NCBI GenBank assembly: GCA_963762565.1
Contig: CAVXLD010000001.1
Span: 1,152,001 to 1,216,000, forward strand
Source of the DNA: an uncultured Verrucomicrobiae bacterium
Lineage (GTDB): Bacteria; Verrucomicrobiota; Verrucomicrobiia; Chthoniobacterales; JAFAMB01
Length of the DNA stretch: 64,000 nt
Reading direction: 5' to 3'
Shown here: in pieces, positions 1,764-47,797 of the stretch
How positions within the stretch are numbered: position 1 is the stretch's first letter
Layout: each line of letters starts with the position of its first letter
Notes under the pieces: generated by a model
The model's database searches: none
Told to the model about the DNA's origin: nothing
What the model saw: the letters and a program-made list of their open reading frames with translations, nothing else
Translations under genes and position numbers: made by a program

Positions 1764-1942
1764 ATCTCCTTCTTCTGCTTGAATGCGGTTTCGAAATTTG
1801 AGGTGGTGGTCTTCATTTGAAGTGTGCGGATAATGATTGGAGTTGTTGTATAACGTTGTGGGGGTTCGCGAAAATAAGAGAAATCTAATCTCTAATTAAG
1901 AGAATGTATTTCTCTTGTCAGCCGGATCACAAAATTAAAATT

Positions 1943-2593
1943 ATGCCCCAGTCCAAATTCCCTTCCTTCCAGCGCGCCCGGCAGCCCAAGCAAATCGAGC
2001 AAAGACGAGAAGCGATTTTGGAAGCAGCTTTGGTACTGTTTCAGAAAAAAGGCTTGAAAAATGTCACCTTGGTCGACATCGCGGAAAAGGTCGGCACCGC
2101 TACATCGAATATCTATCGGTATTTCGACAGCAGAGAGCACATCTATCTGAGCGTTTTGCAACGACAGGGTTCCGAGTGGGAGAAAAGAGCAATGCCGGCT
2201 CTTGACGCGCTGAAGAGAAAGGGAACCGCCGCGAAAGTGGCAGAGGTGCTGACGCGCTCCTTTATTCAGTCCGTGGAATATTCCACCTTGATAACGGCCG
2301 CCAATACCGTCCTGGAAAAGGAACTATCGCCCGAGCTCGTGATAGATTTCAGATCGGGTTTGCTTGAACGCAGGAAACGCTTGGCTCAGGCTTTAGCAGC
2401 AGCCTTGCCCGGCACCCGCGTCGAAGAGATATTTCCTTTGACCCTGCACATCTTTACCCATGTCGCCGGCTTGTGGCCTTTCTGCCATCCCTCTTCCGAA
2501 TCGGAGAAATTGTTAAAGGATCCCGAACACGCGCATCTCAACATCAATTTTGAAATTGAGATGAAACAGTTTCTGTTGCGCTTCCTGAAATGA
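1943..2593 (+). CDS. TetR family transcriptional regulator
   Basis: FQRARQPKQIEQRREAILEAA...VTLVDIAEKVGTATSNIYRYFDSREHI HTH; divergent from the dehalogenase remnant. Confidence 0.9.
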   Translation: MPQSKFPSFQRARQPKQIEQRREAILEAALVLFQKKGLKNVTLVDIAEKVGTATSNIYRYFDSREHIYLSVLQRQGSEWEKRAMPALDALKRKGTAAKVAEVLTRSFIQSVEYSTLITAANTVLEKELSPELVIDFRSGLLERRKRLAQALAAALPGTRVEEIFPLTLHIFTHVAGLWPFCHPSSESEKLLKDPEHAHLNINFEIEMKQFLLRFLK

Positions 2594-2934: not shown

Positions 2935-4728
2935 ATGAATCACTCACAGGAACTTCAGTGGATTGATTATTTCGTGATGATCATTTACTTCGGCTTTGTC
3001 CTCGCCATCGGCTTCGTGCTGAAGCGTTTCATGCGGACGAGCTCCGAGTTTCTTACCGCCGGCCGTTCTATCCCTGCCTGGGTTGCGGGACTTGCTTTCT
3101 TGTCGGCGAATCTGGGTGCACAGGAAGTAATCGGGATGGCCGCTTCCGGGGCGAAGTACGGCATTGCCACCAGTCATTTTTATTGGTTGGGCGCCATTCC
3201 CGCGATGGTTTTTGTCGGCATTTTCATGATGCCCTTCTACTACGGTTCTAAAGCCCACTCGGTGCCGGATTACCTTTTGCTGCGGTTCGACAAAAAAACC
3301 CGCAGTCTTAACGCCATGACCTTCGCAGTCATGACGGTGATGTCTTCCGGGATTTCGATGTATGCCATGGCGCTACTGATTCAGACTTTGCACATCTTCG
3401 ACACGCCTTTCCAAATGTTGGGACTGCCGAACTCCTGGGTGTTTCACGTTAGCATCATCGTTTCGGCTGTGATCGTGCTTGGCTACATCTTCCTCGGCGG
3501 GTTGACCAGCGCCATCTACAACGAAGTTTTGCAGTTTTTCCTGATCGTGGCCGGGTTCGCTCCGCTAGTTTTCCTAGGACTCAAAAACGTCGGCGGGTGG
3601 TCCGGCCTAAAAGAAAAGCTTCCTTCTGCCTTTGTCCATACATGGAGTGGAATGGGAAACCCGCATAACAATCCTTTGGGGGTAGAATGGTTCAGTCTCG
3701 TTATGGGGTTAGGGTTCGTGCTTTCCTTTGGTTATTGGTGCACCGATTTTTTGGTGGTGCAGCGAGCCATGGCGGCGGACTCGATGAGCGCTGCTCGTCG
3801 CACACCGCTGATCGCAGCCGTACCGAAGATGCTGTTCCCCTTCCTAGTGATCTTCCCGGGCTTAATCGCGTTAGCGCTTACTCAGCCAGCCCATTCCAGC
3901 TCCGCGACTAAGAGTGCGGAGGTAGCTAATGTCCAACTCATTGCCCCGCAGGTGAATGTGGAGACGGGTCAGGTGGTCAAGGACAAAGAAGGCAATCCAG
4001 TGCTGGACTACAACACGGTTATTCCCCAAATGCTTCTGCACTATTTCCCCAGCGGAATGCTCGGGCTGGGACTAACCGCGCTGCTGGCCAGTTTTATGTC
4101 CGGGATGGCAGGTAATGTGACCGCTTTCAACACGGTGTGCACTTACGATATTTACCGGGCTTACGTCCGGAAAGACGCGGACGATGAACACTACTTCAGG
4201 GTAGCTCATTTCATGACGGTCTTCGGCGTGGCTTTATCAGTGGGTGCTGCCTACTTCGCTGCCGCGTTCAACAATATTATGGATATCCTGCAGTTGGTGT
4301 TCGCTTTCGTTAACGCGCCCTTGTTCGCCACCTTCCTGCTGGGGATGTTCTGGAAACGCACCACGGGCCATGGCGCGTTCTTCGGCTTGCTGAGCGGGAT
4401 CACCGCCGCCGCGCTTCACCAAGGCTTGACCATTCCAGAGGGCAGTGTCCCCGGGATCAAAGGCGGTTGGATCGCCATCGTGAACACCTATTCAAGTGAG
4501 ATGGCCCAGAATTTTTGGACGGCCATCTTTGCCTGGACGACTTGTTTTGTAGTGACCATCATTATCAGCCTGGCCACCAAGCCGCGACCGGACAACGAGC
4601 TGAAGGGGCTCGTCTATTCTCTCACTGAAAAAGAACGCGAAGTGTCGCTCGCCTGGTACCAGCGCCCGGTCCTGTTGGGGGTTGTGGTTTTGGCCCTGAC
4701 GCTTGTGCTTAACATCATCTTCTTTTAA
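2935..4728 (+). CDS. sodium:solute symporter (SSS family)
   Basis: 597 aa polytopic protein; FLTAGRSIPAW, ANLGAQE, YWCTDFLVVQRAMAA, ASFMSG motifs. Confidence 0.93.
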   Translation: MNHSQELQWIDYFVMIIYFGFVLAIGFVLKRFMRTSSEFLTAGRSIPAWVAGLAFLSANLGAQEVIGMAASGAKYGIATSHFYWLGAIPAMVFVGIFMMPFYYGSKAHSVPDYLLLRFDKKTRSLNAMTFAVMTVMSSGISMYAMALLIQTLHIFDTPFQMLGLPNSWVFHVSIIVSAVIVLGYIFLGGLTSAIYNEVLQFFLIVAGFAPLVFLGLKNVGGWSGLKEKLPSAFVHTWSGMGNPHNNPLGVEWFSLVMGLGFVLSFGYWCTDFLVVQRAMAADSMSAARRTPLIAAVPKMLFPFLVIFPGLIALALTQPAHSSSATKSAEVANVQLIAPQVNVETGQVVKDKEGNPVLDYNTVIPQMLLHYFPSGMLGLGLTALLASFMSGMAGNVTAFNTVCTYDIYRAYVRKDADDEHYFRVAHFMTVFGVALSVGAAYFAAAFNNIMDILQLVFAFVNAPLFATFLLGMFWKRTTGHGAFFGLLSGITAAALHQGLTIPEGSVPGIKGGWIAIVNTYSSEMAQNFWTAIFAWTTCFVVTIIISLATKPRPDNELKGLVYSLTEKEREVSLAWYQRPVLLGVVVLALTLVLNIIFF

Positions 4729-4758
4729 ATCCTTTAATAACCTGAAATTACGAGTCTT

Positions 4759-4998
4759 ATGGGTTTCGATATTCGGCTGCCGATCGGCTACTTGTTCACA
4801 ATTTTTGGGGCTTTGCTGGTGCTCTTTGGCCTTTTCACTGCTAATGCGGACATGTATCAACGTTCGCTCGGGATCAATATTGATCTCTGGTGGGGAGGAG
4901 TTTTGTTGATCTTTGGACTACTTATGGCTTTTGCTGCGCGAAAGGCTAAATCGCGGAATCGCACTGGTCAGCCGCAGCGCCCGCCGCCGTCAAAATAG
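4759..4998 (+). CDS. small 2-TM membrane protein, SSS-associated
   Basis: MGFDIRLPIG...GINIDLWWG; directly downstream of the SSS gene. Confidence 0.75.
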   Translation: MGFDIRLPIGYLFTIFGALLVLFGLFTANADMYQRSLGINIDLWWGGVLLIFGLLMAFAARKAKSRNRTGQPQRPPPSK

Positions 4999-5272
4999 CC
5001 GGAATCAACCTGATTGAGAATGCGCCGGACCCGAACGATCGCGATAGCAATCGCTTGGGCCCACGATTGAGCGGAGCGGATAACTAGCTCCGTAGGAGCG
5101 CAATCTTTATAGATAAACGGCAGAAAAGAAGGAGTTAGAGGAGTCCAAGGAGTTGCAGGAGGTCAAGGAGGCGGAGCCGTGGAGCGCTGCCTCGCCTCCG
5201 CCTTCGCCATGCCACGGCGCGATCCGACAGCCGCCCATGCGTGTTAACATAAGCAGTCGCGGAACCCCTGAT

Positions 5273-5394
5273 GGGGAGGGCGCGCGTCCCCGCGCCCGCG
5301 AAGACGTTCCCGAAGCCAACGGTGCATTTTCGTCCTTGATCAGGGAAGGCTATGGGCTTCGGGAACGGCGGATCGCGAGGACGCGATCCCTCCC
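5273..5394. repeat. paired REP-like element, GGGAGGGCGCGCGTCCCCGCGC family
   Basis: Arm at 5273 and inverted arm GAGGACGCGATCCCTCCC ending at 5394; related copies near 33793, 45148-45267, 54821-54848, 56953-56980 and 61312-61442. Confidence 0.8.
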
Positions 5395-5472
5395 AGCGCT
5401 GGGTCCGGCAGCTGCTGGCCTAAGCCGCTCGGGCAGCTTGTGGAGCTTGGCTCCGGTCTCCGGCCTGGTTCG

Positions 5473-5889
<417 letters not shown>

Positions 5890-5890
<1 letters not shown>

Positions 5891-6135
5891 GAAAACGGAA
5901 GTGGGAAAAACGGAAGTGCGAAAACGGAAGTGGGGACAGGTCAATAGTCAGCAAAAAGTCTAGCTGTCCAGCACCACCGCGACTTGCTCAACGAACGAAA
6001 ACGGCGAAAACGGAAGTGGGGACAGGTCAATAGTCAGCAAAAAGTCTAGCTGTCCAGCACCACCGCGACTTGCTCAACGAATAACTGACCTGTCCCTAAG
6101 CCGACTGACCTCTTCGGAAATAGCTGACCTGTCCC
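5890..6135. repeat. GGGACAGGTCA(A/G) REP-like cluster with 86-bp-period tandem duplication
   Basis: GAAAACGGAAGTG x3 (5891-5932); motifs at 5932 and 6018 (+), 6085 and 6124 (-); 5919-5995 is repeated at 6005-6081. Confidence 0.9.
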
Positions 6136-6143
6136 TTTCTTTT

Positions 6144-6907
6144 CTATCCTTGGGACGGGTTGAGCACCCAAGTAACTTCCTTTGCGGCACTAACAAAACC
6201 GAGATTCCGTAGAATCGGTTTACTGGTCTCGCGTGCTTCGGTGCTCAGGTGCTGAAGACCGCGGCGTCTAGCCTCTCTGGCGCGTTCTGCCACGAGCGCT
6301 CGATAAATACCCATGCGCCGATAAGACGGCGCCACCCTCCTCCGAAAAGCAGGCCAAAAGAACTCGGTAACCCAATTTCCAGGCGGGCCGAAGCGGCGAT
6401 CTCGGCAGAAACATAAGCAACGTAGAGCGCCAGGTCCGGATCGCTGAGCCGATCCGAATAGGCTGTACGCTGCCAAGTGTCCAGTCCGCCGAACGCTTGC
6501 TCCGATGCCTTCAAAAAGTCTTCAAGTTGTTCCTCTGTCGTGACCCTGCGGATATCGACATTGCCCGCGGTCGACGCCTGCACCTCATTCGCCAAATCAA
6601 AGATCATCAATGTTCCCGCAGCGTCCGGCTCGAATCCTTCCTCGGCGAGGCAACCGGAAATCTCGGCTGGAGAATCATGCTCGTAGACTCTCCACATTAA
6701 CTTCTCACCTCGTGATCTAAAGTGGGCAGCCTGGCTAGCCACGGCTTGGCGCACCGTACTTGGAGTTAGCTCCCAACAAGAAATGAAGTTGAAATAACCC
6801 GTTAAACAGACAACGCCGTCCGCTCGCTCAACCACCAGCCCCGGTGGCGCTTTGGGGTTGGCGCGCACTTCCGCGTCATATTGGGCCAGCACACGCGCGA
6901 GATCCAC
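6144..6907 (-). CDS. GNAT acetyltransferase (single frameshift near 6335, possibly a sequencing error)
   Basis: ORF 6245..6907 ends LLFGGG; the other frame continues VAPSYRRMGIYRALV...LSTEARETSKPILRNLGF (acetyl-CoA motif). Confidence 0.8.
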
Positions 6908-7055
6908 AGTATCAGTTTACCCGACGTCAAGCTCTAGAGGAAGGGGCGCTTCACCGGGGTCGCGTCTATACCAAACCTGACTGGCTTCGCTTGTCAGGGC
7001 CAGCTTGCGGCGCCCCTGTTGCTCGTTCCCATAAGGGACCGTTCACTCGTAGACC

Positions 7056-7222
7056 ACGGTCGTGAATTGGGGACAGGTCAACGGTCGTGAATTGGGGACA
7101 GGTCAATAGTCTGCAAGGACAGAGATCTGAGTAGGGACAGGTCAACTGTGTTGGTTGCCGCGTAAGCCATTACGCGTGAGCACGTGCCGTCAATTGGTTC
7201 GCAAAATGGCTGACCCGTCCCC
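7056..7222. repeat. GGGACAGGTCAA REP-like cluster
   Basis: 25-bp tandem ACGGTCGTGAATTGGGGACAGGTCA x2; motifs at 7069, 7094, 7134 (+) and 7210 (-, one mismatch). Confidence 0.9.
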
Positions 7223-7338
7223 TTTCTTCTCTGCAAAACACATTTAAACAATACGCGCTCTCACTCGAGTCCGGACGTCCGTAAAATCCGTTCGCTAATT
7301 AATTACCGGCCACGCCGGGCGCCGGCCTAATGACTCAC

Positions 7339-7488
7339 CTATCGCCGGCGCTTCCGAGATCCGCGAGAGCCTTTTGCGATGGCCCGAAATGCCAAGATTG
7401 ACGCAAGTAACGCCACCACGATCAGGGCACACAACAAGAGTGCCGATGACGCTTGGTCTCCGAGCATCTGCGCGAAGTTTGATTCCAT
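7339..7488 (-). CDS. putative 49-aa single-TM small protein
   Basis: Manual translation MESNFAQMLGDQASSALLLCALIVVALLASILAFRAIAKGSRGSRKRRR*: hydrophobic helix followed by a basic tail. Confidence 0.5.
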   Translation of the reverse strand: MESNFAQMLGDQASSALLLCALIVVALLASILAFRAIAKGSRGSRKRRR

Positions 7489-7604
7489 AGAGTGACACTC
7501 AGTAAAGCGGTTTTCCAGGGACCGTAAGAAAGGGACAGGTCAACTGTGCCCGTTATCGTGCAGGCAAGTACAGTAGGGTGCCTGTCGCAATAGAGGCTGA
7601 ATTA

Positions 7605-8916
7605 GGGACAGGTCAATAATCATGACTAACCGCAAAGGAAACCAAACAAGGTGCGGATCAATAGAAGATAACAGGCAGCGCTTTTGCCGGGGACCCTTCG
7701 GAAAGCTTTAAAACGGGGGAAAGCGTTCGAGGCCGTGCCCGCGGACGTGGCTCGACCTGCGCGAAGGCTAAAATGCTAGGCTAGCTGACCGGCCGGAGAC
7801 GGAGATTGCGGAGCACCCAGATCTGGTCATCGGCTATGACGGGCAGCCGGTAGCCACGACCGGATTGGGTAGGAGCGACGATTTGTCTGCAACGGGCGAA
7901 TTGTTCTTGCACAAATCCCCGGCTACCGAGGATTCCGCCATCGGTAAAATAGCGTATGCGGCAGCGCAGAAGGTCCGCCAGTGGGATCTCGCCTTGCTGC
8001 TGCTGGAGTACTTTCTGGGCAAGGTCCCCTTCAATGGTCGCACCCACTTTGGAAGCAGCCGTTCCGGTTCGAAAAAGCAGCTTGCGATATTCCCGGCGCG
8101 CATCCTTCCAATTGCTCTCTGTGCCTAGGCCTAATGTCTCCTGAATCCCCAGTTTGGCGTGGGCCGAGTCCTTAGCGATCGCCTCGGCGTAGCCACAATA
8201 GCGGTAGTCTTTCGGATCTTCGCATAGCCCAGCCCTAAGCGGATTTAAATCGATATAGGCAGCTACCGCACTTAAAGCTTGGCCCTCCTCGATTAATACA
8301 CTCTTAAAGCGCTCCGCCCACAGAACCCCGTATCGGTGATGGCGTCGATTGTACCACTGTGCAAAGCGGCCCTTGAGCTCCTTCATGTAAATCGATACGT
8401 CAAAGAGCCTGCTCAAGTGATGCTCCCTGAGCTGTTGCGCCTGATCGCTCAAGCTTGCTTCTTTGGCGTAGGCGGCTAGTTGCTGAGCCACTTGAGTGCG
8501 CCGCTCTGGCCCGTAGCCAAGCTCGATACAATCCAGCAACTCCTGGTCGGAAAGTGTTCGTCGTTCCGGCACCTTGCACAAGATATGAAAATGGTTGGCC
8601 ATCAAAGCATAGGTTAGCACTTGCACGCAGCAGGCCTCCTCCAGCCGCCGCATCAGGTGAACGAAGTGCTCGGCTTCAATCGAACCAGGGCTTTGGGTCC
8701 GAAACAGAAATCGCCCATCGACCACTCGTGACATGCAGTGGTAGAAGGTCTGTCCTTGTCCTTTGATTCGTGGCTGTCGCATTGGTGCTCAGCCCACATT
8801 CATAACACAAATCATTGCTGTATCAATATTTTCTCTTTGATAACCGAGTGGGCGACCCCCGGGGTAGCCCTCATATCCTTCGGTCCGCCCCCCGTCTTGA
8901 ATAATTGACCTGTCCC
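7605..8916. mobile_element. REPtron-like unit: RAYT bracketed by inverted GGGACAGGTCAAT motifs
   Basis: GGGACAGGTCAATAAT at 7605 and ATAATTGACCTGTCCC ending at 8916 flank the RAYT; extra motif at 7532; GC hairpin at 8850-8870. Confidence 0.7.
7781..8782 (-). CDS. REP-associated tyrosine transposase (RAYT/TnpAREP, Y1 HUH superfamily)
   Basis: YHCMSR, YALMANHFHIL (HUH), YN....G.LW.ERFKS, YIDLNPLRAGL (catalytic Tyr), DP.DYRYC and C-terminal RYFTDG.ILGS..FV. Confidence 0.92.
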   Translation of the reverse strand: MRQPRIKGQGQTFYHCMSRVVDGRFLFRTQSPGSIEAEHFVHLMRRLEEACCVQVLTYALMANHFHILCKVPERRTLSDQELLDCIELGYGPERRTQVAQQLAAYAKEASLSDQAQQLREHHLSRLFDVSIYMKELKGRFAQWYNRRHHRYGVLWAERFKSVLIEEGQALSAVAAYIDLNPLRAGLCEDPKDYRYCGYAEAIAKDSAHAKLGIQETLGLGTESNWKDARREYRKLLFRTGTAASKVGATIEGDLAQKVLQQQQGEIPLADLLRCRIRYFTDGGILGSRGFVQEQFARCRQIVAPTQSGRGYRLPVIADDQIWVLRNLRLRPVS

Positions 8917-10665
8917 TGTCTTGGTCTTGGTACTTCCGCGAGATTTAGCCGCGTAACGAGCGTGTTAGGATGCTCGGAACCGAGCACTTTTTCTTCTAAC
9001 TCCAACACCGATCGATACTCCGTTTCGTTTCGGCGTCCGCATATTTGCCTTGATGCAAAAGCGCGTTCCCCAGGTCGCTGCGGCTCCCTAACGTGTCCGG
9101 ATTTTCCGGGCCCTTAACCTTTCCTTTCAACCTGACCACGGTGCGGTACTCCGTCTCGGCTTCGACATACTTGCCTTCACTATCGAGAGTGTCAGCCAGG
9201 CCGCTGCGCGTTGTCAGCGTGCTCGGATCCTCCGGGCCAAGCACCTTTTCTTTGAGCCGCAGCAGCTCACGATACTCGGGTTCGGCATCGGCATACTTAG
9301 CTTGGTAGTCAAGGGCAAGCGCTAGATTGTTGCGCGTCTTCAATGTGTCCGGATGTTCGGGGCCAAGGATTTTCTCTCTGAGCTGAAGCACCGCCCGATA
9401 CTCCGTCTCGGCTTGGTCATACTTCCCTTGAAAGAAAAGCGCGGCTGCCAAGTAGTGTCGCGTTGTCATGGTGTCAGGGTGCTCTGGGCCGAGGATGCGT
9501 TCCTGTTCGGCTAATACATCGCGCAAAACCCGCTCGGCGTCGTTGTACCGGCCTTGATCGTGGAGAACCCAGGCGATAGCGAACTGGACCCGCGCCCACT
9601 GGGCCGGATCCCGGGTTTGGTCGGTGAGTTTCTCAGCATCACCGAGTCGCTTCAGAGCATCGGCGTATTCGACGCGTTTCTCGGCCGACCAGGCAGCCAG
9701 CTCAAACGCTTTGACCGCCTCGACGTTCTTTGGCGGCCCGGCGCGCTGCGCTTCGTCGGCGGCAGCGAGTGCTAGGCGCTCCGCTTCATTGTAATCCTTC
9801 GCCACATAAGCCGCGTTCGCCCTCTCGTAGGCTGTGGCATTTGGAGCCTTCTTCAGTTCTTCAGCGAACCGGGGGAGCTGTTCCTTTAAGGTCGCGGCGT
9901 CAATCCCGAGGTTTTTGGCGAGTGCCGCGTAGGTGCGCTCATCAATCTCTGCCGGTTTCTGGCCCGGCCTCTCCTGGCGCACTTTGTCCTGCACCTCGGC
10001 ATATGAATTGACACCCTGCAGCAGTTTTTCGACAGTTTCCTTGAGCGCTTGAAGCTGCTGATTAGTTTGGCGCTGCTGTTCGCTTGAGTGCTGCTGACCC
10101 TGCAATAGCCAAATACACAGGGTTACAGTCAAGATCATCAGCGCAGCAACCGACACGGCCCAACGCTTTACTCCTCGTCGGAGTTGGATGAGATCAGCCC
10201 GAAGCTTCAGCACGCTGGCTTCCAGCCCCTCGTTGCTGCTCAAGGGATGGTAAACGTGGCTATCCGCTTTAACGCGGGCGCGATAAGCGGCCTGAAGTTC
10301 ACATTTTTCCGGGTCTTCGCCCTCGTGTGGATCAGCAGGAAAAGTCTCGTCCAGGAAGAGGTACCAGACCTTTTTCCCCTTAATCTTAGCATAGAGCGCT
10401 TCGTATTGAGTGTAACTGGCGCGGCCGAAAGTCTCATCCGGTGCGGGCGGTTCTGCTCCGTAGCAGTTACCGACCAGTTGCACCCTCCATTGCTGGCCTC
10501 GACCCTTCGTCGCAGCATCGCGCGAAGGTCCCCTTCTTCGATGCCGAAGATATCCTGCCAATCCGGCTCGTACCCAAGGAATATCAGTGTGTTGGCTACG
10601 AGCTGGCGCGCGCTCTTGAGTTCGCGGCTGACAGCCGAGATGAAGATGGCGGGACGCGGAGACAT
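8917..10665 (-). pseudogene. DUF4062 - TM - TPR protein, two frameshifts, 3'-truncated at a REP motif
   Basis: N-terminal IFISAVSREL...VQLVGNCYG...SYTQYE (DUF4062) split near 10485; TM helix; LGPEHPDT TPR repeats. A GAAAC duplication near 9025 shifts the frame, and the last repeat runs into CCAAGA x2 plus GGGACAGGTCAA. Confidence 0.8.
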
Positions 10666-11003
10666 CAGAGTTTCAATGGGGGATGGCAAGGCTAACACCG
10701 AGGCCGGGTGAGGCGCCATCTAATTCCCCCCAGGGGTCACGATTATAGAGCGTGTTGCCCAAATCGATTCGCACAATAAGGAAAGATCACAAGACCACAA
10801 AGGTAACCCTGTCGCACCTCGCTGCGGGCAAGTTAGTAAAAGTTGTACAGTCGCTTCGAGAGTGCCTGCTACACTCGCCTCCTCTAAGTCAGTAGAACAC
10901 CAACCTCTTCTGTCTTTGTGACCTTTTCGTATTGTGATTTGAGGTTCTAAAAGCGGGAAGAGTCACGTTTCTAACAGCCACGATAGCGGCAAAACAGGTA
11001 TTT

Positions 11004-11151
11004 CACAGAAGATCACAAAGAACAGATACTTTGAACAGGAGGTAAGGGAGGAAACAGAGATAGAAGGTCGAGCTTAGCGCCAAGTAACCCTCCGTTGCCT
11101 CTGTTATCTCCTGTTTAAAATCCGTCTTTGTGGCCTTCGTGACCTTCTGTG
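11004..11151. repeat. nested inverted 9-nt periodic repeat element
   Basis: Outer pair CACAGAAGATCACAAAG / CTTTGTGGCCTTCGTGACCTTCTGTG; inner pair AACAGGAGGTAAGGGAGGAAACAGAG / CTCCGTTGCCTCTGTTATCTCCTGTTT. Confidence 0.75.
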
Positions 11152-11269
11152 GATGATTTCTTTTTTGCGGTCGTTGGTCACTCTTCTCATTCTCTGTCTT
11201 ACCCTTGCGACTCTGCGAGATTTTTTTCTTCTTGGTTGCAGCTTACCCATACTAGGATCCGCCGCGGCT

Positions 11270-11761
11270 ATGAAGACATTGTTCAGGATTGCTTTGTTGG
11301 TTCAACTGGTCAGCGGTGTCGGCACCACGTGCAAAGCGGCGGATAACGCCGACGCTGAATTGATGCGGGCTGCAACCGAATTGGCTCGACAATATGACGC
11401 TCGTTACGCTGCCCGGGATTCCGCCGGCATGGCGGCACTTTACGCCGCGGACGGGAGGTTAGTGTCACCTGAGGGTCCGACCCTGCACGGCCGAGTAGCG
11501 CTCACCGCTTACTAGAGCAAACGTTTCGCTACCGGATTCAGAGGCTACGTCACCAAAGTCGTGGAAGTCCATGCGCAAGGAAACAGCGGCTACGGCATCT
11601 CCGAATTCGCTGTCAGCACTCCCATTGTAAATCGCCAAACGCACCAACTGCATGGAACCATGGTCTCGGTCTACCAACATGATGCCGACGGTTGGCACTT
11701 TAGCTTGGTGGTTCACAGCGTCCCGGGAAGTAGGAGGGGAGACTTGGTCGGTCAAATGTGA
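11270..11761 (+). pseudogene. secreted NTF2-like (DUF4440/SnoaL) protein with in-frame TAG
   Basis: Signal peptide, D.AGMAALYAADG..VSP.GP.LHGR, TAG at 11513, then the same frame continues ...VYQHDADGWHF. Confidence 0.7.
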
Positions 11762-12020
11762 AGGCGAAAAGGGGTGAACCCCCTCGCCTTAGGCTCGGAA
11801 TGACAAATCACAAATGACAAATGACAAACGAAGGCACTCCGCGGATGACGCCCGTCGTGAATTTCGTGAATCTGTCATCTCGTTCGTCCATCTGCGGTTG
11901 GGTTTTGCGCCTTTAGTACGTAATTCTACGCATTGTCCCGAACCCGTTCTGTGCCAGGTTGGCTGAAAACAAGCTTCGGAAACCTCGCTTCCGTTGTAAC
12001 CAGTAATTCAAGCCATATAT

Positions 12021-12525
12021 ATGCCTGCTACAATTAGCCCTTGGTTCAACAGGGGACGATGTTAAGCGTCTCCAGCGGGTTCTCGCGCGACATTTGCTCT
12101 GGAATCCATTCGGTCCTATAACGGGAGTGTTCGATGCGAGCCTCGAGACCTCTGTAAAGTCTTTTCAACAGGCAAATGGATTGGTAGCCGATGGGGTTGT
12201 TGGTCCGACAACCTGGGCGAAATTGCCCAGCTATCGCGAAGCATCACCAGAGTTGAAAGAAGGATGGAAGGGACCGGCTGTAGCTTGGCTGCAAAAGGTG
12301 TTGGCCGGGCAGGATTTTGTGATCAATTTTACCCCGTATAACGGTGCCATCGACGGCATCTTCGGTCCGAAAACTGACGCCGCCGTACGCGCATTACAAA
12401 CCTGGGCCGGCCTGCCTCCAAACGGCGTTTTGGACGACAACACCTGGTTCACCTGGATGGAACCCGGCTCCGCTTCGCAATTAACCCTCGAAGCAGCCTC
12501 CAATCTCACCGATGGCTTGTTGTAA
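12021..12525 (+). CDS. peptidoglycan-binding domain protein (two PG_binding_1 domains); +1 frameshift near start
   Basis: MPATIS/LGSTGDDVKRLQ, FQQANGLVADGVVGPTTW, DGIFGPKTDAAVRALQ. Confidence 0.8.
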
Positions 12526-12665
12526 TCCCAACCCGCTGGTTACAACTCTCGGTTTGGGAATCTAAAATAGGAACAGGTCACAGCTCCTGCATCGCGGTGG
12601 CCGGTGCACGCGGAAAGATTTGCAAAAATCAGAAGTCTTTTGCGTCAGGTTGATAGAGACGCCAG

Positions 12666-12983
12666 ATGATCTTCTACCATAGGACGAACGCTGCAAAAAC
12701 CATCTTGCGCTACGGATTTAGAGACGCAGAACGATTTCGCGGTTTCGAAAGCCCAGTTCTCCGGGGAGTCTTCATTTCTGACGTTCCGCTCGCGTGCATG
12801 GAAGAAGAAAAAGGGAGCCAAGTTCTGAAAATCACGCTCCCTGACGATTTTGACATCTCCGATTACGAATTGATCGAGAAGAGCAAACATTACCGAGAGT
12901 GGTGCATACCGTCGGAACTGATTAACCTACTCGGCCAGGTCGAACTCCCGGAAGGAGAAGCTGAATTGGGGACAGGTCAATAA
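12666..12983 (+). CDS. hypothetical protein, possible ADP-ribosyltransferase-like fold
   Basis: FYHRT..A..IL..GF, GVFIS, REWCIP pattern; the stop codon comes from the sequence GGGGACAGGTCAATAA. Confidence 0.5.
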   Translation: MIFYHRTNAAKTILRYGFRDAERFRGFESPVLRGVFISDVPLACMEEEKGSQVLKITLPDDFDISDYELIEKSKHYREWCIPSELINLLGQVELPEGEAELGTGQ

Positions 12984-13078
12984 TCGCCAACTGTCTGGCT
13001 ACCGGTCGTATTTCCAATGAAACAATTGACCTGTCCCTCGCCCTGGATTCAATTGACCTGTCCCTCGCCCTGGATTCA
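12968..13078. repeat. GGGACAGGTCAA inverted pair plus 27-bp tandem duplication
   Basis: Motif at 12968 (+), 13026 and 13053 (-); CAATTGACCTGTCCCTCGCCCTGGATT x2. Confidence 0.9.
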
Positions 13079-13205
13079 GACCTGGACCGGCCTGCCTCCA
13101 AACGGCGTTTTGGACGACAACACCTGGTTCACCTGGATGGAACCCGGCTCCGCTTCGCAATTGACCCTCGAAGCGGCATCCAATCTCACCGATGGCTTGT
13201 TGTAA
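13077..13205 (+). repeat. 129-bp direct repeat of the 3' end of the PG-binding gene (12397-12525)
   Basis: 5 mismatches in 129 bp, 4 of them synonymous. Confidence 0.95.
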
Positions 13206-13213
13206 GCTCAATC

Positions 13214-13435
13214 CGTTCGGCGTTCGGCGTTTGGCGTTTGGCGTTGGTCGGCGGTCGGCGGTCGGCGGTCGTTGCTTAGGACCGTCAGTTAGGGATAGGT
13301 GGACTGGGGCTTTTAATCGTGCTCGTGCTCGGGATTTGGAAGGCGAGGCGTGGGCGTATGGGCGTATGGGCGTATGGGCGATGCGGCGAATTGCTCAGCG
13401 TTTCGCCAATTTGCTATCTGCTATTTGCTATTTGT
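13214..13435. repeat. 7-8 nt tandem repeat tracts
   Basis: (CGTTYGG)n, (GGCGGTC)n, (TGGGCGTA)x3, (TGCTATY)n. Confidence 0.8.
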
Positions 13436-13514
13436 AGTCGCGAACGAGCCTCGGGCGAGTTCGTGCTACCGGCCTCACTTGCGCCTTCAAGAGAACCCGT
13501 TTAGGAAGGGAGCC

Positions 13515-14504
13515 ATGGATACCAGAACTGGCGTGACTCGGCGAGAGTTCCTGCGGAGTTCTTTGATCACTGCGGCGGGTCTGGCGACGGGCGTCTCCGG
13601 CGCTACCCTCTCTTCACCGCCGACTTTATCGGAATCACTGCGCCTCGTCTTCGCTACTGATACCCATCTGATGCAGAACAATGGCTTACGTTCGGCAGAA
13701 GGACTGGCTGCAGCGGTAGAGGCAATCAAAGAGTTGCGACCACGACCAGATCTGATCGTTTGCGGCGGCGATCTCACTCATCCCTGGCCAAACCTCGATT
13801 ATCCCGCCGCGAACAAACTGCTGGATCGTTTCCTTGGCATTTGGGCACCGCTGCATTCGATCGAGACCCATTACGTTTTCGGAAATCACGACTTCGTTGG
13901 CACGCTGAACCCGCGTGTTTCTCGACACGATCCGCGCTTCGGTAAGGGGCTGTTTGAGAAGCGCCTCGATCTCCCCAGGCTGTATTACTCATTCGAAAAA
14001 CGAGGCTGGCGTTTCATAATCCTCGACGATGTCTGGCCGAATCTGGACGGCAGCTACTACGGACAGTACAAGGCGGACCAGCTCGACTTCGTCCAAAGCG
14101 AATTAAAAGCCCACAAGGAAAAACCAACCGTCATCGCCAGCCATATCCCAGCGGTTTCCAATTTCGGGACATTGCTCGGATTCGCCAGATCTATTCAGAC
14201 CAATTTCAAGCATCGGCCTTCGCTGATTTCGAGAAACGGCAAGACGCTAGTCAATATCATTCGCCAGTCCGGAGCTAACGTAAAGCTGGTGCTTGCCGGG
14301 CATCTTCACCATCAAGAGAGGATGGAGGCCGATGGCGTTAGCTACCTCAACGGGGGCGCGATTTGTGGTAACTGGTGGAAAGGATCGATGATGGGCTGTC
14401 CGGAAGGATTCAATGTGATCGATCTGCACCCAGATGGTTCATTCGCGATCGCTTATAAGACGTTTGGTTGGGCTTGGGACAGGTCAACTGTTTCGGTTCA
14501 CTGA
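13515..14504 (+). CDS. Tat-exported calcineurin-like metallophosphoesterase
   Basis: TRREFL Tat motif; DTH, GGD, GNHD, SHIP and GHLH motifs; CGNWWKG. Confidence 0.88.
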   Translation: MDTRTGVTRREFLRSSLITAAGLATGVSGATLSSPPTLSESLRLVFATDTHLMQNNGLRSAEGLAAAVEAIKELRPRPDLIVCGGDLTHPWPNLDYPAANKLLDRFLGIWAPLHSIETHYVFGNHDFVGTLNPRVSRHDPRFGKGLFEKRLDLPRLYYSFEKRGWRFIILDDVWPNLDGSYYGQYKADQLDFVQSELKAHKEKPTVIASHIPAVSNFGTLLGFARSIQTNFKHRPSLISRNGKTLVNIIRQSGANVKLVLAGHLHHQERMEADGVSYLNGGAICGNWWKGSMMGCPEGFNVIDLHPDGSFAIAYKTFGWAWDRSTVSVH

Positions 14505-14524
14505 TTAGCAGCCGATCCTCAGCG

Positions 14525-15427
14525 ATGGATTCTCGACCACCAATTCTATTGGCCGTTTTCGGAGCCCTGCTTCTGACTCAGATAGCGGCCTCTGCATCTG
14601 ATCTGGCTTTTCTGGGTCCAAAAGGAAGTTATAGCGATGAAGCGGCAACTATATGGGCGTCTCGTGACCATATCACTGGCACTCTCCCTTTAAGCACGAT
14701 CAGCTCGATCGCAGAATCTGCCCGGGACGGACGGGTAGAATTTGGTTTGCTGCCATTCGAGAATAGTATCGGCGGATTCGTCGGGGAAACGCAGAAGCTC
14801 CTGCTGGCGGCGGACCTCGGATGGCGCATCATCGGAGACATTACTATTCCGATCAGTAACAATCTTTTGGTAAAGCCCGGGGCGAAGGCATCGGATCTGA
14901 AGAAAGTAATATCGCATCCGGAGGCTCTTAAAGAATGCGCGAAATGGCTAAAGACGAACTTCCCTGAACTGGCTCAAGAGGAAGTCAGCTCCACCGCGGC
15001 GGCTGCAGAAGCAGTTTCCAAAGGGGATGGGACTATCGCAGCGATCGCCTCGCCGGCGGCTGCGAGTGTTTATCAGCTGCAGATATTGTTCTCAAATATT
15101 GAGGACGATCGATCTAATGCCACGAACTTCGTGGTAATCGAAGGCGCCGGAGGCAATTTCTCAGAGCAAAATCCGACTCGCCTGGTTGTCCGAATCGAGG
15201 CAGCAAGCGGGACGGACATTTTTGCCCGGTTGCTAGACGCTCTGAATCGTCTTTCATTTAGTTTGACCAGCGCAGCCAGCGTAGCCACGGGCAGTCTAGG
15301 TTCACATCGATTCGCTCTCATATTGGACTCAAAAAAGGGAACAGATCTCGGCCAAATTCAAGATCTGCTTCGGCCTACCGGTGCTGTACTAGTCGGAGCG
15401 TACCGTCCCTCCGGCCTCGGACAGTAA
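14525..15427 (+). CDS. prephenate dehydratase-like protein with N-terminal signal peptide and degenerate ACT-like C-terminus
   Basis: AFLGPKGSYS, LPFENSIGG, SHPEALKEC..WL, SSTAAAA, IEDDRSNATNFVV. Confidence 0.8.
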   Translation: MDSRPPILLAVFGALLLTQIAASASDLAFLGPKGSYSDEAATIWASRDHITGTLPLSTISSIAESARDGRVEFGLLPFENSIGGFVGETQKLLLAADLGWRIIGDITIPISNNLLVKPGAKASDLKKVISHPEALKECAKWLKTNFPELAQEEVSSTAAAAEAVSKGDGTIAAIASPAAASVYQLQILFSNIEDDRSNATNFVVIEGAGGNFSEQNPTRLVVRIEAASGTDIFARLLDALNRLSFSLTSAASVATGSLGSHRFALILDSKKGTDLGQIQDLLRPTGAVLVGAYRPSGLGQ

Positions 15428-15501
15428 AAGATCGCAACGCGGCCGATCCTTCTAAAACCTTGAAACCGGACGCCTCGGTTTGCGGTAGAAAGCTAATACC
15501 T

Positions 15502-15669
15502 ATGGATTTTTTGTTTTTGGCCGCGGCGCACCAGCTATCAGCCAGCATGCCTCAAGCGTATCCGACATGGACGACTAGTAGCGGGGTCGAGATTATGGCG
15601 GACATAATTAGTGGCTTCCTCACGCTTGGTTTCGGCATCTTTATTTACCGGCTGCCCCCGGAAAAGTGA
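15502..15669 (+). CDS. small putative membrane protein
   Basis: 55 aa ORF with a C-terminal hydrophobic helix. Confidence 0.35.
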   Translation: MDFLFLAAAHQLSASMPQAYPTWTTSSGVEIMADIISGFLTLGFGIFIYRLPPEK

Positions 15670-15748
15670 AACCAAGACCTTTCGTTTTCGCCCGTGAGAA
15701 ATCCTCGCGTCCTTGTCCTTTGTGGCCTTCTGTGCTGATGGTGACTCC

Positions 15749-16584
15749 ATGATCTTCAAAGGTCTGTTCGGGCCAATGGCTGCTCTGATTGGCCTGGGGT
15801 TCTCTTTCCCGGCGGTCGCTGAAGCCGGTGGACCGGTTCGGCTTTACAGTGCGGACCGTACCCATAACGATTTTTGGGAAAACAGGGGAAGTCATCGCGA
15901 TCGAACAGGAGAACGGAGCGATGGGCCTCCAGGTTAAGGAATCGGACGGATTCAATGTCGAGGTGGTTAATCAGTTGAAGGAACCAACCAGTATCCATTG
16001 GCACGGCTTGATCCTACCCGCGTTGATGGACGGAGTTCCGTTTGTGAGCCAGGATCCAATTCCTCCCGGTGAGACTTATCATTATCAGTTTGCGTTGAAG
16101 CAAAGTGGAACTTACTGGCTCCATTCTCACTATGGTCTACAGGAACAATTGTTAGCCGCCGCGCCGTTAATCCTGGAAAGCGAAGCGCAAAACGCCAAGG
16201 CCGATGAACAATACACAGTGCTCTTGAGCGATTACTCGTTTACGTCGTCTGCAAAAATCCTCGAACGATTGAAGGGCGGTATGCCGGTTCAGCGGCAACC
16301 AACTTCTTCGTGAACACCGGAGCGTTGACCAGCCAGTTAACGGCGGTTGATGGAAAAGATATCGAGCCGGTATCGGGAAATTATTTTCAGTTAGGGATCG
16401 CGCAACGGATCGATCTGCTGATGAAAATCCCGGATAAAGGGGACGCTTTTCCTATTCTGGCCCAGCGTGCCACATCCTCTATCACGCGGCGGTGGGCATG
16501 TTCACGGTTCTCAAATACGACGGCGCCGATACCAAGTTTTGGCAACCCGAGAAAACGCTGACCGAGCTTAGGGGAGAGCGTTGA
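15749..16584 (+). pseudogene. multicopper oxidase with frameshift and two internal deletions
   Basis: TSIHWHG and GTYWLHSH, then a jump to AVDGKDIEP...AQRIDL, then a jump to CHILYHAAVGMF (C-terminal Cu site). Confidence 0.85.
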
Positions 16585-16590
16585 GTTTCC

Positions 16591-17193
16591 TCAATCGATT
16601 AACCGATCATCTGCGTGCGCTCTGAGTCGCTCCGAAAGAGCATCCGTGATATGTCGCATTAGATCAGGAGTCTCACGAGAAAACCCATATACCCATTCTG
16701 GAAAGTTGAGAGGCTTCTGTACTGCCCAGATCTCGTCGTGGCGATCGGGAGGCAGAATTTGAGCCGGATCGCCGACTGCGATCCATCCGATGGGAACAAA
16801 CACTTCGGGCGGAATGACCGTGCGCAAATGCACCGTCGCATGAGGTCGTACTTCCGCGCCCCGTCCTAATTTCGCTCCGTGAAAGATCGCCGCTGATGTT
16901 GCCACGAACACTTCATGCTCAAGAGAGGCACCGACGACATGAGCGTTGGGCCCAACGAGGCAGTGATCCCCAATGGTACACGCATGTTTTGCAGTCGCTC
17001 GAATGACAGCGTTTTCCATCACGATGCATTCGCGTCCGATCTGGATGAGGCCACCAGACTCACCCACTATTCGCGCACCGTAGAGAACGCGGGAGCCCGG
17101 ACCGACGTACACGTTGCCGCATATCGTCGCATCGGGTGCAATCCAAGCGGTCGAATCAATTTGCGGCCGATGCCCTGCGTGTTCAAATAACAT
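16591..17193 (-). CDS. gamma-carbonic anhydrase-like hexapeptide repeat protein
   Basis: PQIDSTAWIAPDATICGNVYVG and left-handed beta-helix repeats. Confidence 0.85.
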   Translation of the reverse strand: MLFEHAGHRPQIDSTAWIAPDATICGNVYVGPGSRVLYGARIVGESGGLIQIGRECIVMENAVIRATAKHACTIGDHCLVGPNAHVVGASLEHEVFVATSAAIFHGAKLGRGAEVRPHATVHLRTVIPPEVFVPIGWIAVGDPAQILPPDRHDEIWAVQKPLNFPEWVYGFSRETPDLMRHITDALSERLRAHADDRLID

Positions 17194-27419: not shown

Positions 27420-28621
27420 AGACCTGGTTTTTCGATTAGCTGGCTACAGCTTCATCAGTCAAACCTCGACGCCGCCGGAGTGACGGATCTGCGGCCGGAT
27501 GCCTTCATTCCGCGCTTGGTGTTTGGCGACTATATCCAGGACTTGCTGCGCGAAGCATGTGAGACGTCAAAGTGTCTAGACCTTATCCATGACGAAATTG
27601 TCGACATAACCCGCCTGAACGACGAAACATTCCAGCTATTCGACCCGAGGAAGGCAAAAGTCTGAGAGGAGCGCAAGTCGTCCTTGCGCTTGGCAATTTT
27701 CCGCCCGGCAGACACCTCGGTGCGGACAAAGCCCCGGAGCAGTATTGGTTCAGCAACAATCCTTACTCAGCCGGGACTCGCGCCGAGCTAGCTGAACCGG
27801 GCGATATACTCATTATCGGGACCGGATTGACTAGCCTTGATGTGTTGCTGACGCTGGCTCCAACAAAGCAGGAGGGCAAGATTCACATACTATCCCGGCG
27901 AGGTCTTTTTCCTCAGGCGCATGGCAACGTCGCGAAGTATTCTCCGTTTTTCGATTCTGATCATTTGCCGAAGACCGCCTGCGAGCTCTTGCGCCAGGTG
28001 CGCCGTCAGGTTCGAATTGCACTTGCTGAGGGAATCGACTGGCGACCAGTGGTAGACTCGATTCGCCCGTTTAACCAGGCCATCTGGCAGAATCTCAATT
28101 ATGTCGAGCAGAAACGATTTTTGAGACACCTGCGCGGCTTCTGGGACATCCATCGTCACCGCTGTGCTCCGCAAGTAATGGCCGTAAAAGAGCAGCTTGA
28201 AGTTGAGAAACGACTGATTTCTCACCGTGGACATATTCTGGATCTCCGTCCGGTAGAAAACCACGTCGAGGTCACCTACCGGCCCCGAGGAACCCAAGTA
28301 AAAAGGACCATTGTAGTTAGGCGAGTTCTCAGCTGCACCGGCCCTCAGTCAGACTATCGTAAGCTGGACGATCCTTTGGTCCGCCGGCTGTTGGAACGCG
28401 ACCTTCTCGCACCTGATCCCCTGCGAATCGGCGCTTATACCGACCAAGACGGACGAGTACTCAATCAAGCTGGTGAGCCGATCCATCGCCTCTACACGCT
28501 AGGTAGCCCGCGAATGGGATTTCTTTACGAATCGATTGCCGTGCCGGAACTGCGCGTTCAAGCAAACGACTTAGCCAAGCGCATTCTAGCATCTCATCGT
28601 GGCGCGCCAAACCGGCGCTGA
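27420..28621 (+). pseudogene. FAD/NAD(P)-binding oxidoreductase, 5'-truncated and frameshifted
   Basis: FIPRLVFGDY, IIGTGLTSLD, SRRGLFPQ.H, WDIHRHR, CTGP, ESIAVPELR; N-terminal Rossmann motif missing after the heptamer repeats at 27316-27388. Confidence 0.75.
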
Positions 28622-28770: not shown

Positions 28771-29234
28771 ATGACCACAGCCGATATCAAGACGCCACGT
28801 CCGTATCCCGGGATCAGGCAGGCCAAGATATCGGTGGCAAAGACGGAAACCCCACGAGAAAGCCTTCTGCCGATATCGCTTCTATCCGCAAAGGGATTCC
28901 GCCAAAGGATTTCGTACTGCTAGCCAGGCATATCGGTTTACCGCAGGCAGAACTAGCCAGGAAATTGGGGCTCTCCCCGAGAACGATAGCAGTGCGTATT
29001 GCCGGGGGCCAAAAGAAACTCAATCCTGAAGAAAGCGAAAAGGTCCTCCGGATCCAGCACATCTTTGAACAGGCCATTCGCGTTTTTGGCTCGTTAAAGG
29101 AGGCGCGAGAATGGCTGTTAAGTCCGGCAATTGGACTCGAAGGTCAAGGACCCATTGATCTGCTCGATACTGAGCCGGGCGGTGCTCAAGTCCGTGATTA
29201 CCTTGGCGCGATCGAATACGGAAACTACTGGTGA
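28771..29234 (+). CDS. Xre/MbcA/ParS-type antitoxin (frameshift in first ~20 codons)
   Basis: IGG...IASIRKGIP, HTH, LNPEESEK.LR, A.EWL..P..GL.G..PIDLLDTEPG...V..YL..IEYG; overlaps the RES gene (GTGA). Confidence 0.85.
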
Positions 29235-29701
29235 AGCTCTACCGGTTCGGTTCCGGGTCCGCGCGGCCTGCAGCCGAAGAGTTTAACGGACAAGGTGGCG
29301 TTCTAGCTGCTGGCAGGTGGCACATTAAAGGTACACCGGTCGTTTATACGTCTACCTCAGAGCCCCTCGCACTTTTGGAAAAGCTGGTGCACCGACGATC
29401 AGCTACGGTCGTCTATCCGCTTTATATCGCCGATGTGCCCGATCATTTAATTGAAGAGCTTCCCGCCACTAGTCTGCCGGCAGATTGGAGATCCATTTTC
29501 CCAAGTCGTTCCACTCAACGATTGGGTAACAATTGGCTTATAGGTAGATCCGGAGTGGGACTTCTAGTGCCGAGTATTCTCCTCACTGGCGCCGCTCCGG
29601 AGGTTAAAAACTGTCTAGTGAACCCTGAACATCCGGAATTCAAAAAAGTCGCGCTGAGCGGACCAATACTGCTAGCGTTGGACAGCAGGTTCAATCAGTA
29701 G
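29231..29701 (+). CDS. RES domain toxin
   Basis: GRWH..G..VVYTS.S..LA.LE.LVH and LVPS (conserved R, E, S). Confidence 0.9.
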   Translation: MKLYRFGSGSARPAAEEFNGQGGVLAAGRWHIKGTPVVYTSTSEPLALLEKLVHRRSATVVYPLYIADVPDHLIEELPATSLPADWRSIFPSRSTQRLGNNWLIGRSGVGLLVPSILLTGAAPEVKNCLVNPEHPEFKKVALSGPILLALDSRFNQ

Positions 29702-30644: not shown

Positions 30645-31037
30645 ATCGATGTGTTCTCTTTCTTGGGGTTCTGTTTGTTCTCGCGGTACAATTCGGTAGT
30701 CGTTTGTCGTGCGATAAACTTAGCGTCGGATTCCGAACCCATGGAGTTACAAATGTGTCGGGATTCCGAAAACCTAACCGCAGCCCCGAAATTCTCCGGG
30801 GTAAAATGGACGCAGATTTACGCAGATTTCGGTCTGGGCTTCGACTATGCCACCGACTATACGGCGATTAGATTGGCTTGGAACAAGGCTTTAAGATCAC
30901 TCAGCTTTGCGTTCGTTGTGCTCTTTTGCGGCTATTCTCAATCTTCAGATAGGGAGAGGTCAACTGTACCGGCAGTCGAAGACGCGGAGTAACTTGACTT
31001 TGCCTAGCGATTTCGGTGTCCTCTAGTGATCGCCCTT

Positions 31038-46311: not shown

Positions 46312-46807
46312 ATGTCCGCTCCTTCTCCCCGCTGGCATCTAGCTCAAATTAATATCGGCCGAATCCGCCCCCATGACCGATTCGCTTATGTCGGGGTTTG
46401 TGGCCGAGCTTGACCCCGTCAATGCTTTGGCCGATACCAGCCCCGGTTTCGTCTGGCGACTTCAGACCGACGCCGGAGATGCTACCGGCATTCGCCCGTA
46501 CGATGACGAAACCATCCTCATCAATATGTCGGTGTGGGAAAGCGTCGAAGCTCTCAAAGCCTTTGTTTATCGGACACATCACGCCGATGTCATGCGCCAA
46601 CGAGAGAAATGGTTCGAACACCTCGACACCTATTTCATCGCCCTCTGGTGGATACCGGCGGGGACTATTCCGACGGTTTTAGAAGCCAAGGTCCGGCTCG
46701 ATCATCTCCGCGAAAACGGCGAATCTCCCTACGCTTTCTCTTTCAAGAGAGTCTATCCGCCGTCGTCACCTGTCACGGTTTTAGACAATGCGGCTGATTC
46801 TGTATAA
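46312..46807 (+). CDS. DUF3291 protein, copy 1 (frameshift near 46370)
   Basis: HLAQINIGR / [41 protein letters not shown]. Confidence 0.8.
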
Positions 46808-46848
46808 ACCGTTGGCGCACTTCGCCTTTCTCTCTACAGATAAGCATT

Positions 46849-47790: not shown

Positions 47791-47797
47791 AAAGGAT

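Follow-up and report, generated by a model that had tools for sequence, protein, structure and literature searches.

RAYT-like transposase genes flanked by inverted repeats have been described as TIRYTs, and the loci that they form as TIRtrons; in the part of the description available to us, TIRYT repeats share the motif GGGGWSAS and make up moderately abundant families that occur as singles, dimers or groups (Di Nocera, 2013; PMC3733652). The accessible portion of a later classification of TnpAY1 proteins assigns most TIRYTs to subclass 2.1, and describes from Chromatiales and Alteromonadales a subclass 2.3 of long proteins (~325 aa) with an insertion of ~55 aa between β3 and αC and a two-part tail; according to that portion, no REP-like sequences were found with either subclass (Quentin, 2018; PMC6006769). 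For Group 1 RAYTs, flanking 16-mers average ~12 occurrences per replicon according to the available part of a further survey (Bertels, 2017; PMC5581495). Here we analyze 64,000 nt of DNA (“the window”) from an uncultured Verrucomicrobiae bacterium, probably of the Chthoniobacterales (assembly GCA_963762565.1, contig CAVXLD010000001.1, positions 1,152,001 to 1,216,000), in which the gene of a Y1 HUH tyrosine transposase stands among many copies of a short repeat with the 11-nt core GGGACAGGTCA. We consider it probable that this locus is a TIRtron: a TIRYT-class Y1 gene bracketed by its cognate inverted ends amid non-autonomous copies. It is a known kind of small mobile unit, of a class already in print, in a stretch of decaying genes.

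The repeat is concentrated around the gene far beyond chance. A scan of the 64-kb window found 14 exact copies of GGGACAGGTCA, on both strands and all in 5933-14486, against 0.02 expected per window (100 shuffles; largest shuffle count 1); by simple arithmetic the chance of all 14 falling within 8.6 kb of the window is ~(0.134)^13, roughly 4e-12. Two one-mismatch copies lie inside the region, at 7211 (minus strand) and 12570 (plus strand). An earlier note on this DNA, made by a model from the sequence alone, had listed 16 motif positions clustered in ~8.6 kb around the transposase, and all 16 are real to within 1 nt. The same note had placed degenerate copies at 30952 and ~43076: the former exists, with one mismatch, while no 12-mer in 41810-46009 matches at 3 or fewer mismatches, and a second one-mismatch core outside the region was found at 18000. 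The gene itself is bracketed by an inverted pair of copies, 7604-7620 and 8901-8917, which are 94% complementary over 17 nt (I12). The gene and the repeats are laid out as follows.

7781..8782, minus strand: intact TIRYT-class Y1 HUH tyrosine transposase gene, 333 aa (P0001)
5933, 6019, 7070, 7095, 7134, 7532, 7605, 12570, 12969 and 14476, plus strand: repeat cores
6086, 6125, 7211, 8906, 13027 and 13054, minus strand: repeat cores
5918..6141: cluster A, cores 5933+, 6019+, 6086- and 6125- (pattern ++--)
7057..7227: cluster B, cores 7070+ and 7095+ (25-nt tandem duplicate), 7134+ and 7211- (1 mismatch)
Group C: cores 7532+ and 7605+, then the transposase gene, then 8906-
7526..7621, plus strand: repeat copies 3′ of the transposase gene, cores 7532 and 7605, the latter being the inner bracketing arm
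8900..8922, minus strand: repeat copy 5′ of the transposase gene, core 8906, the other bracketing arm, 124 nt upstream of the start codon
12557..13076: cluster D, cores 12570+ (1 mismatch), 12969+, 13027- and 13054- (27-nt tandem duplicate)
14470..14494, plus strand: single copy E, core 14476
30952..30967, plus strand: isolated degenerate copy, one core mismatch, 3′ extension AACTGT kept, 16 kb outside the cluster

Three of the core pairs are local tandem duplicates (5933/6019, 7070/7095 and 13027/13054; repeat families D5, D8 and D7), so independent copies number nearer 11-13. The conserved unit exceeds the 11-nt core: it spans about 16 nt, roughly GGGACAGGTCA-A-Y-N-R-T, and carries subfamily-specific bases on its 5′ side, such as TGAATTG or AAGAAA. 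Five of the 14 exact copies (5933, 6019, 7070, 7095 and 12969) read GGGGACAG, which fits GGGGWSAS; the other nine, among them the two that bracket the gene, have GGGACAG after A or T and so agree with 7 of the 8 positions of that motif. Flanks of this type, which the earlier note had mentioned, are indeed in print in the part of Di Nocera (2013; PMC3733652) available to us. An Rfam scan of 5000-15500 at E up to 1 returned only a chance-level match, with no known RNA family, and a search of literature full text for the motif strings gave no bacterial paper among the matches listed.

The transposase gene is intact. P0001 has the HUH motif NHFH at residues 63-66 (H64/H66) and its catalytic tyrosine, Y176, in YIDLNP, an instance of the class 2 TnpAY1 signature Y-x-x-x-N-P; NHFH and Y176 are invariant across 23 aligned homologues, which keep the whole architecture, including a helical insertion after the HUH strand and a tail with a RYFTDG-ILGS motif. 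Relative to short forms, the insertion after the HUH strand in P0001 amounts to ~53 aa, and the C-terminal tail is conserved. Pfam Y1_Tnp scores 32 bits against a cut-off of 23. Homologues of equal length run to thousands (333-aa ones at 100% coverage), several of them named transposase or RayT, and the nearest named ones come from Verrucomicrobia. An AlphaFold model (mean predicted local distance difference test score 73.8, weak in the tail) has as its best fold match 4er8_A, the E. coli RAYT bound to a REP hairpin (probability 1.00, TM 0.67 on target), followed by the TnpA proteins of IS608 and ISDra2 (2a6o_A and 2xqc_D listed). A PDB search by single sequence gave nothing, and a profile search reached ISDra2 TnpA at E ~0.5, which is not significant. 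Motifs, family profile and predicted fold together support the view, held already in the earlier note, that this open reading frame (ORF) encodes an intact Y1 HUH enzyme related to RAYTs.

The same core accompanies Y1 genes elsewhere. We searched 596 Gb of sequence for an inverted dimer, that is, the core, 45-75 nt and the reverse core, a pattern for which arithmetic predicts few chance matches. It occurs in at least 119 stretches, and a hand count among the matches listed gave at least 54 assemblies. Judging by organism names, we take the hosts to represent about seven phyla: Acidobacteriota, Verrucomicrobiota, Bacillota, Actinomycetota, Bacteroidota, Pseudomonadota and Myxococcota. Several genomes carry the dimer as a dispersed repeat, among them one Acidobacteriota metagenome-assembled genome (MAG) with 14 loci and Hespellia stercorisuis with copies on 8 contigs. 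A protein-family profile found Y1 genes in 5 of the 119 listed loci, wide flanks being present in just 80 loci, and in all five the same core brackets the gene.

L036, Chthoniobacterales: Y1 protein at 84% identity
L051 and L030: Y1 proteins at ~50% identity
L019 and L056, a Coriobacteriaceae MAG and a Clostridium MAG: short Y1 forms of 268-269 aa, at 29% and 23% identity by alignment

In two of them, L030 and L056, the dimer by which the locus was found is 7-8 kb away from the gene, so the association was not built into the search. The closest relative, L036, has upstream of its gene a repeat of the same sequence as that in the window, 119 nt from the start codon against 124 nt; its element is compact (cores 3303-5650) and sits among apparently whole genes, which Pfam identifies as a secretion ATPase, a kinase-like protein and a short-chain dehydrogenase. 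When the window and the loci L036, L051 and L030 are compared, no pair has any ORF in common but the transposase. The bracketing pair in the window and the bracketed homologues in five other loci support GGGACAGGTCA as the probable cognate repeat of the Y1 transposase, a point on which sequence comparison bears out the earlier note. Dense clusters are a further trait of the Verrucomicrobiota loci: 8 of the 19 have five or more cores in a 1-kb span, whereas none of 86 loci from other phyla does, a count in which 11 array loci of one Actinomycetota MAG were kept apart and three overlapping loci were dropped. Within the DNA retrieved, only three of these eight dense loci have a Y1 gene; several of the eight end at contig ends, one being only 982 nt, and two (L007 and L009) come from one MAG.

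The repeat takes other forms in some of these genomes. In Hespellia stercorisuis the dimers (L004, L005, L017, L029, L059, L094, L096 and L109) are near-perfect palindromes of ~100 nt, with arms that are complementary even where copies differ, including in the flanks beyond the cores, which are specific to each copy: within single copies the perfect runs outward are 10, 11, 6, 0, 6, 8, 4 and 8 nt long, whereas between copies they average 1.0 and do not exceed 5. These sequences suggest inverted duplication in place, correction between the arms, or insertion at palindromic targets. Complementarity of dimer arms in copy-specific flanks suggests fold-back copying in place and not insertion of the whole; dimers in the window have no Hespellia-type arm complementarity in their flanks. 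The Actinomycetota MAG set apart above (L039, L054, L055, L061, L064, L066, L080, L106, L112, L115 and L117) carries tandem arrays with a period of ~41 nt at many places in its genome, each unit being a core and its near-reverse-complement ~14 nt apart. In L068, near-identical dimers of 93-94 nt (3514-3606 and 6150-6243) stand in direct orientation 2.6 kb apart and bracket a TetR gene, 58% identical to window 1904-2590, together with other DNA; the TetR gene of the window has no repeat nearby. In L052, from a Verrucomicrobiota MAG, a metallophosphoesterase homologue (1301-2296, 49% identity) adjoins a dimer at 2408-2478.

Within the window the 16 copies fall into five groups, A to E, and are intergenic in 14 cases, the other two overlapping just the last codons of ORFs. 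Cluster A contains an exact 78-nt tandem duplication (5918-5995 / 6004-6081) along with 15-nt tandem repeats. Cluster D encloses a conserved 105-aa ORF (12666-12983) whose final codons are supplied by the 12969 copy, and copy E, which shows 88% complementarity with the 13027 copy across 25 nt (I4), gives a metallophosphoesterase ORF its last 10 codons and stop. As single-stranded DNA (ssDNA), the inverted dimers fold in prediction as panhandle hairpins of 12-13 bp (z -3.79 for 6019/6086, -2.05 for 7134/7211 and -3.72 for 12969/13027); single window copies show no folding (z -1.15 and +0.41). A different unit, a hairpin with the core in its loop and covarying flanks, was considered and rejected here, as window copies reach 4 bp at most; in other genomes 59 of 328 distinct copies form such a hairpin, where shuffled partners give 2.5%. 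Between the genes of the cluster region there are also short simple tandem repeats with units of 7-15 nt (13214-13265, 13351-13382, 11799-11826 and 5879-5933; D3, D9, D10 and D18).

How does this locus compare with described systems? It resembles TIRtrons in its RAYT-like Y1 gene, in inverted repeats at a fixed distance, in the GGGGWSAS motif and in repeats present as singles, dimers and groups; it differs in the long 333-aa protein with its ~53-aa insertion, in the probable Chthoniobacterales host, in having as many as 14 exact copies in 8.6 kb, and in the fourth G of GGGGWSAS, present in only 5 of those 14. With subclasses 2.1 and 2.3 and with Group 1 RAYTs it shares Y-x-x-x-N-P, an HUH motif of the NH[YF]H type and low to moderate repeat numbers. 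The length of the protein, the insertion between core elements and the C-terminal tail fit subclass 2.3 in particular, whereas P0001 has NHFH, WA and YIDLNP where that subclass has NHYH, WE and YVDLNP; and clear inverted dimers accompany the gene here, unlike in subclasses 2.1 and 2.3 as published. Compared with the REPtrons of E. coli and Pseudomonas, there is likewise a single Y1 gene between inverted short repeats, with dimers that form hairpins and a fold nearest to 4er8, and, as in that system with its REPs, REPINs and bacterial interspersed mosaic elements, the copies are intergenic and lie in clusters of alternating orientation. However, the GTAG/GTGG tetranucleotide foot of REPtrons is absent, the single unit in the window is not palindromic, the NCBIfam RAYT model scores below its cut-off, and the copy number seen is small and local. 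As in REPINs, two inverted units fold as a hairpin, and dispersal of the dimers is seen in other genomes. The Y1 HUH fold and a presumed single-strand cut-and-join chemistry are common to this locus and the IS200/IS605 elements (IS608, ISDra2), but here there are no one-strand subterminal hairpins and no tnpB, inverted repeats form the ends, and the protein has twice the length.

These likenesses point to a mechanism. IS608 TnpA and E. coli TnpAREP nick and rejoin one DNA strand at hairpins. By analogy the transposase would nick and rejoin one strand at or beside the core, its likely substrate being a dimer folded as a hairpin, or the panhandle into which the two arms flanking the gene would pair. 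New copies may land preferentially beside older ones and close to the gene; this, combined with slippage or unequal exchange, would build up ++-- stacks in every tolerant intergenic gap. The outcome would be a local swarm around the gene, made of singles, of inverted dimers similar to REPINs or to miniature inverted-repeat transposable elements (MITEs), and of short tandem duplicates. The cluster is perhaps so large here because it lies in a belt of pseudogenes, where insertions would cost nothing, and the genes between the stacks would be resident chromosome, not captured cargo.

The decay of that belt is plain from its genes. Disrupted genes span window 5100-16600, and the remainder of the window looks intact, with ordinary full-length Pfam domain matches for ORFs at 17-64 kb. 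Genes of the cluster region occupy both strands, and three features of the belt enter the argument below.

5538..5890, minus strand: aquaporin (MIP) pseudogene, matching Pfam MIP profile positions 129-198 of 222
7339-7488, minus strand: small membrane ORF, 49 aa
13077..13215, plus strand: 5′-truncated duplicate of the 3′ end of the peptidoglycan-binding (PG-binding) gene, 94% identical to 12397-12535 over 139 nt (D2)

The aquaporin remnant has lost its N-terminal half, is split over three frames with at least two frameshifts (three-frame translations), and at its truncated 5′ end adjoins the tandem repeats of cluster A. A frameshift lies inside the DUF4062 domain of the DUF4062-TPR gene; an ORF of the SnoaL/DUF4440 type has an in-frame TAG at 11513-11515, its downstream 81-aa piece having no Pfam match on its own; and just beyond the cluster a multicopper oxidase is in fragments (15789-16313 and 16310-16561). 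Homology of the PG-binding duplicate begins 3 nt past the last repeat unit of cluster D, and the gene end and its duplicate are each seemingly followed by a degenerate core. Of the two ORFs whose last codons come from repeat copies, the 105-aa one has relatives that are ~100 aa long and cover ~90% of it, and the conserved alignment of the metallophosphoesterase stops at residue 319 of 329, just before the repeat. The gene list of the earlier note stands for the most part. Pfam confirms the aquaporin remnant, the DUF4062-TPR gene, the PG-binding gene and the metallophosphoesterase, and the small membrane ORF is present; its “GNAT” ORF has no Pfam support and only a lead from a language model, and its “ART-like” ORF is a conserved hypothetical protein with no support for that label. 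PADLOC, run on 7 ORFs, gave one weak match (E 0.0011) and no defence system could be assigned, and neither tRNA genes nor any other marker of an island were found in the window. Other genes of the window include a sodium:solute symporter (2935-4728) and a prephenate dehydratase ORF (14468-15427).

Further from the cluster, the window contains a tandem duplication of ~3.3 kb (46373-49531 / 49643-52902) with four ORFs (DUF3291, catalase-domain, LprI-domain and one unassigned), whose two copies have almost identical Pfam scores. An ORF with a RES domain, a domain of toxin-antitoxin type, lies at 29231-29698, next to an unassigned ORF at 27827-28618. At one end of the window a 155-aa ORF (61-525) matches only positions 479-609 of 1021 of the AcrB/AcrD/AcrF profile and probably represents a fragment of a gene; the opposite end has a long AcrB-type ORF (61511-63964).

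The earlier note had gone further, proposing that the transposase excises, joins and trims foreign gene segments at the sites, as an integron-like capture platform built on HUH chemistry. The locus does invite the thought: unrelated small genes and two truncated genes lie between the sites, 3 nt separate a repeat unit from the start of the PG-binding fragment, the aquaporin remnant runs up to the cluster A repeats, the conserved 105-aa ORF sits inside a plus...minus pair, the neighbours in the window are common to none of L036, L051 and L030, and the near-identical dimers of L068 bracket genes. Yet if the plus...minus bracket of the transposase itself defines what is inside an element, only the transposase and the 105-aa ORF (12666-12983) are inside; the GNAT-like, 49-aa membrane, DUF4062-TPR, SnoaL/DUF4440, PG-binding and phosphoesterase genes occupy minus...plus intervals, between elements. 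The frameshifts and the nonsense codon in the supposed pieces indicate ordinary decay, because cut-and-join chemistry does not produce them. Nor do related genomes bear capture out: clusters there occur with no Y1 gene nearby in the fetched DNA, the L036 element is compact among intact ordinary genes, and in 1.3 Mb of compared loci none of the window genes is found again as a unit bounded by repeats. The sole matches in those loci, the L052 phosphoesterase and the L068 TetR gene, are single genes with no common flanks, and we treat them as coincidence because only a single gene is shared in each case and the window TetR gene has no repeat copy. Short genes separated by a repeated site beside a recombinase gene make the likeness to an integron, but it is superficial: there is no tyrosine-recombinase integrase, no common cassette orientation or promoter-side site and no cassette-like recombination site for each gene, the genes being on both strands and outside the repeat-bounded units. 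No integrase domain was found in any region or window ORF and no attI or attC was noted, in a survey in which attC models were not specifically searched for. We hold this proposal to be very improbable, and gene capture or shuffling by the locus is not supported: nothing shows it.

Might the transposase have had little part in multiplying the repeats? Slippage, unequal exchange and segmental duplication of a few founders in a non-essential region could have produced most of the local copy number, and the exact tandem units of 78, 25 and 27 nt, each with a core, the duplicated 139-nt gene end, the other simple repeats of the region (D3, D9, D10 and D18), the tandem stacks in L030 and L051 and the 41-nt arrays of the Actinomycetota MAG all agree with this. 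Tandem duplication, however, accounts for only 3 of the 16 copies, and the others differ in their flanks, belong to several subfamilies and lie in both orientations in separate gaps; we think this account unlikely as an explanation of most copies. Less likely again, and in our view improbable, is that the repeats serve the host as protein-binding, structural or transcript-end sites, the Y1 protein being a domesticated maintenance enzyme and the cluster a reflection of function. The exact 11-nt core is kept across about seven phyla and nearly every copy is intergenic, many lying shortly beyond the 3′ end of a gene; RAYTs are widely viewed as domesticated single-copy genes, according to the available part of Bertels (2017; PMC5581495). 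Against a host role, a lone copy forms no structure by itself, no Rfam family matches, ++-- stacks and tandem duplicates within one gap would be redundant for a regulatory site, and 14 copies are packed into 8.6 kb where 55 kb of ordinary genes elsewhere in the window have none.

Several observations weigh against the TIRtron reading itself. The NCBIfam REP_Tyr_transpos model (NF047646 equivalog) gives P0001 59.1 bits against a cut-off of 80 and matches with the C-terminal half of the model only. Lone copies are not hairpins, unlike REPs and the ends of IS200/IS605 elements. The presence of clusters in RAYT-bearing loci is due in part to the loci having been found by the dimer, and the 14 exact cores in 9 kb of the window top every compared locus (9 at most). 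The copies are known from the 64-kb window; if these were nearly all that the genome holds, the notion of a swarm of a mobile family would be weaker. Our literature search found no biochemical work on any TIRYT. Finally, the ends of two gene fragments lie 3 nt and ~45 nt away from repeat arrays, which passive, tolerated insertion alone does not predict. Rearrangement linked to the repeats, by the enzyme or by ordinary recombination between repeats, is plausible but unproven. A stronger version, in which the repeat copies are also breakpoints of deletions and duplications made by the transposase, so that the TIRYT reshapes the host genes around it, would amount to a weak, HUH-based form of local gene shuffling; candidate breakpoints are those where the aquaporin gene lost its 5′ half and where the truncated PG-binding duplicate begins, 3 nt from a repeat unit, and we give this version little credence.

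We suggest that this TIRtron is a clear and well-preserved example of a little-studied class. If its breakpoints were made by the enzyme, a domesticated-looking transposase would be remodelling the genes beside it, a conclusion that the present evidence does not reach. What the comparison does bring out is the constancy of the repeat: an 11-nt core is found unchanged with Y1 genes of 23-84% identity from Verrucomicrobiota, Actinomycetota and Bacillota, and it forms REPIN-like dimers in about seven phyla. This core provides a defined candidate substrate for a first biochemical test of the TIRYT class.

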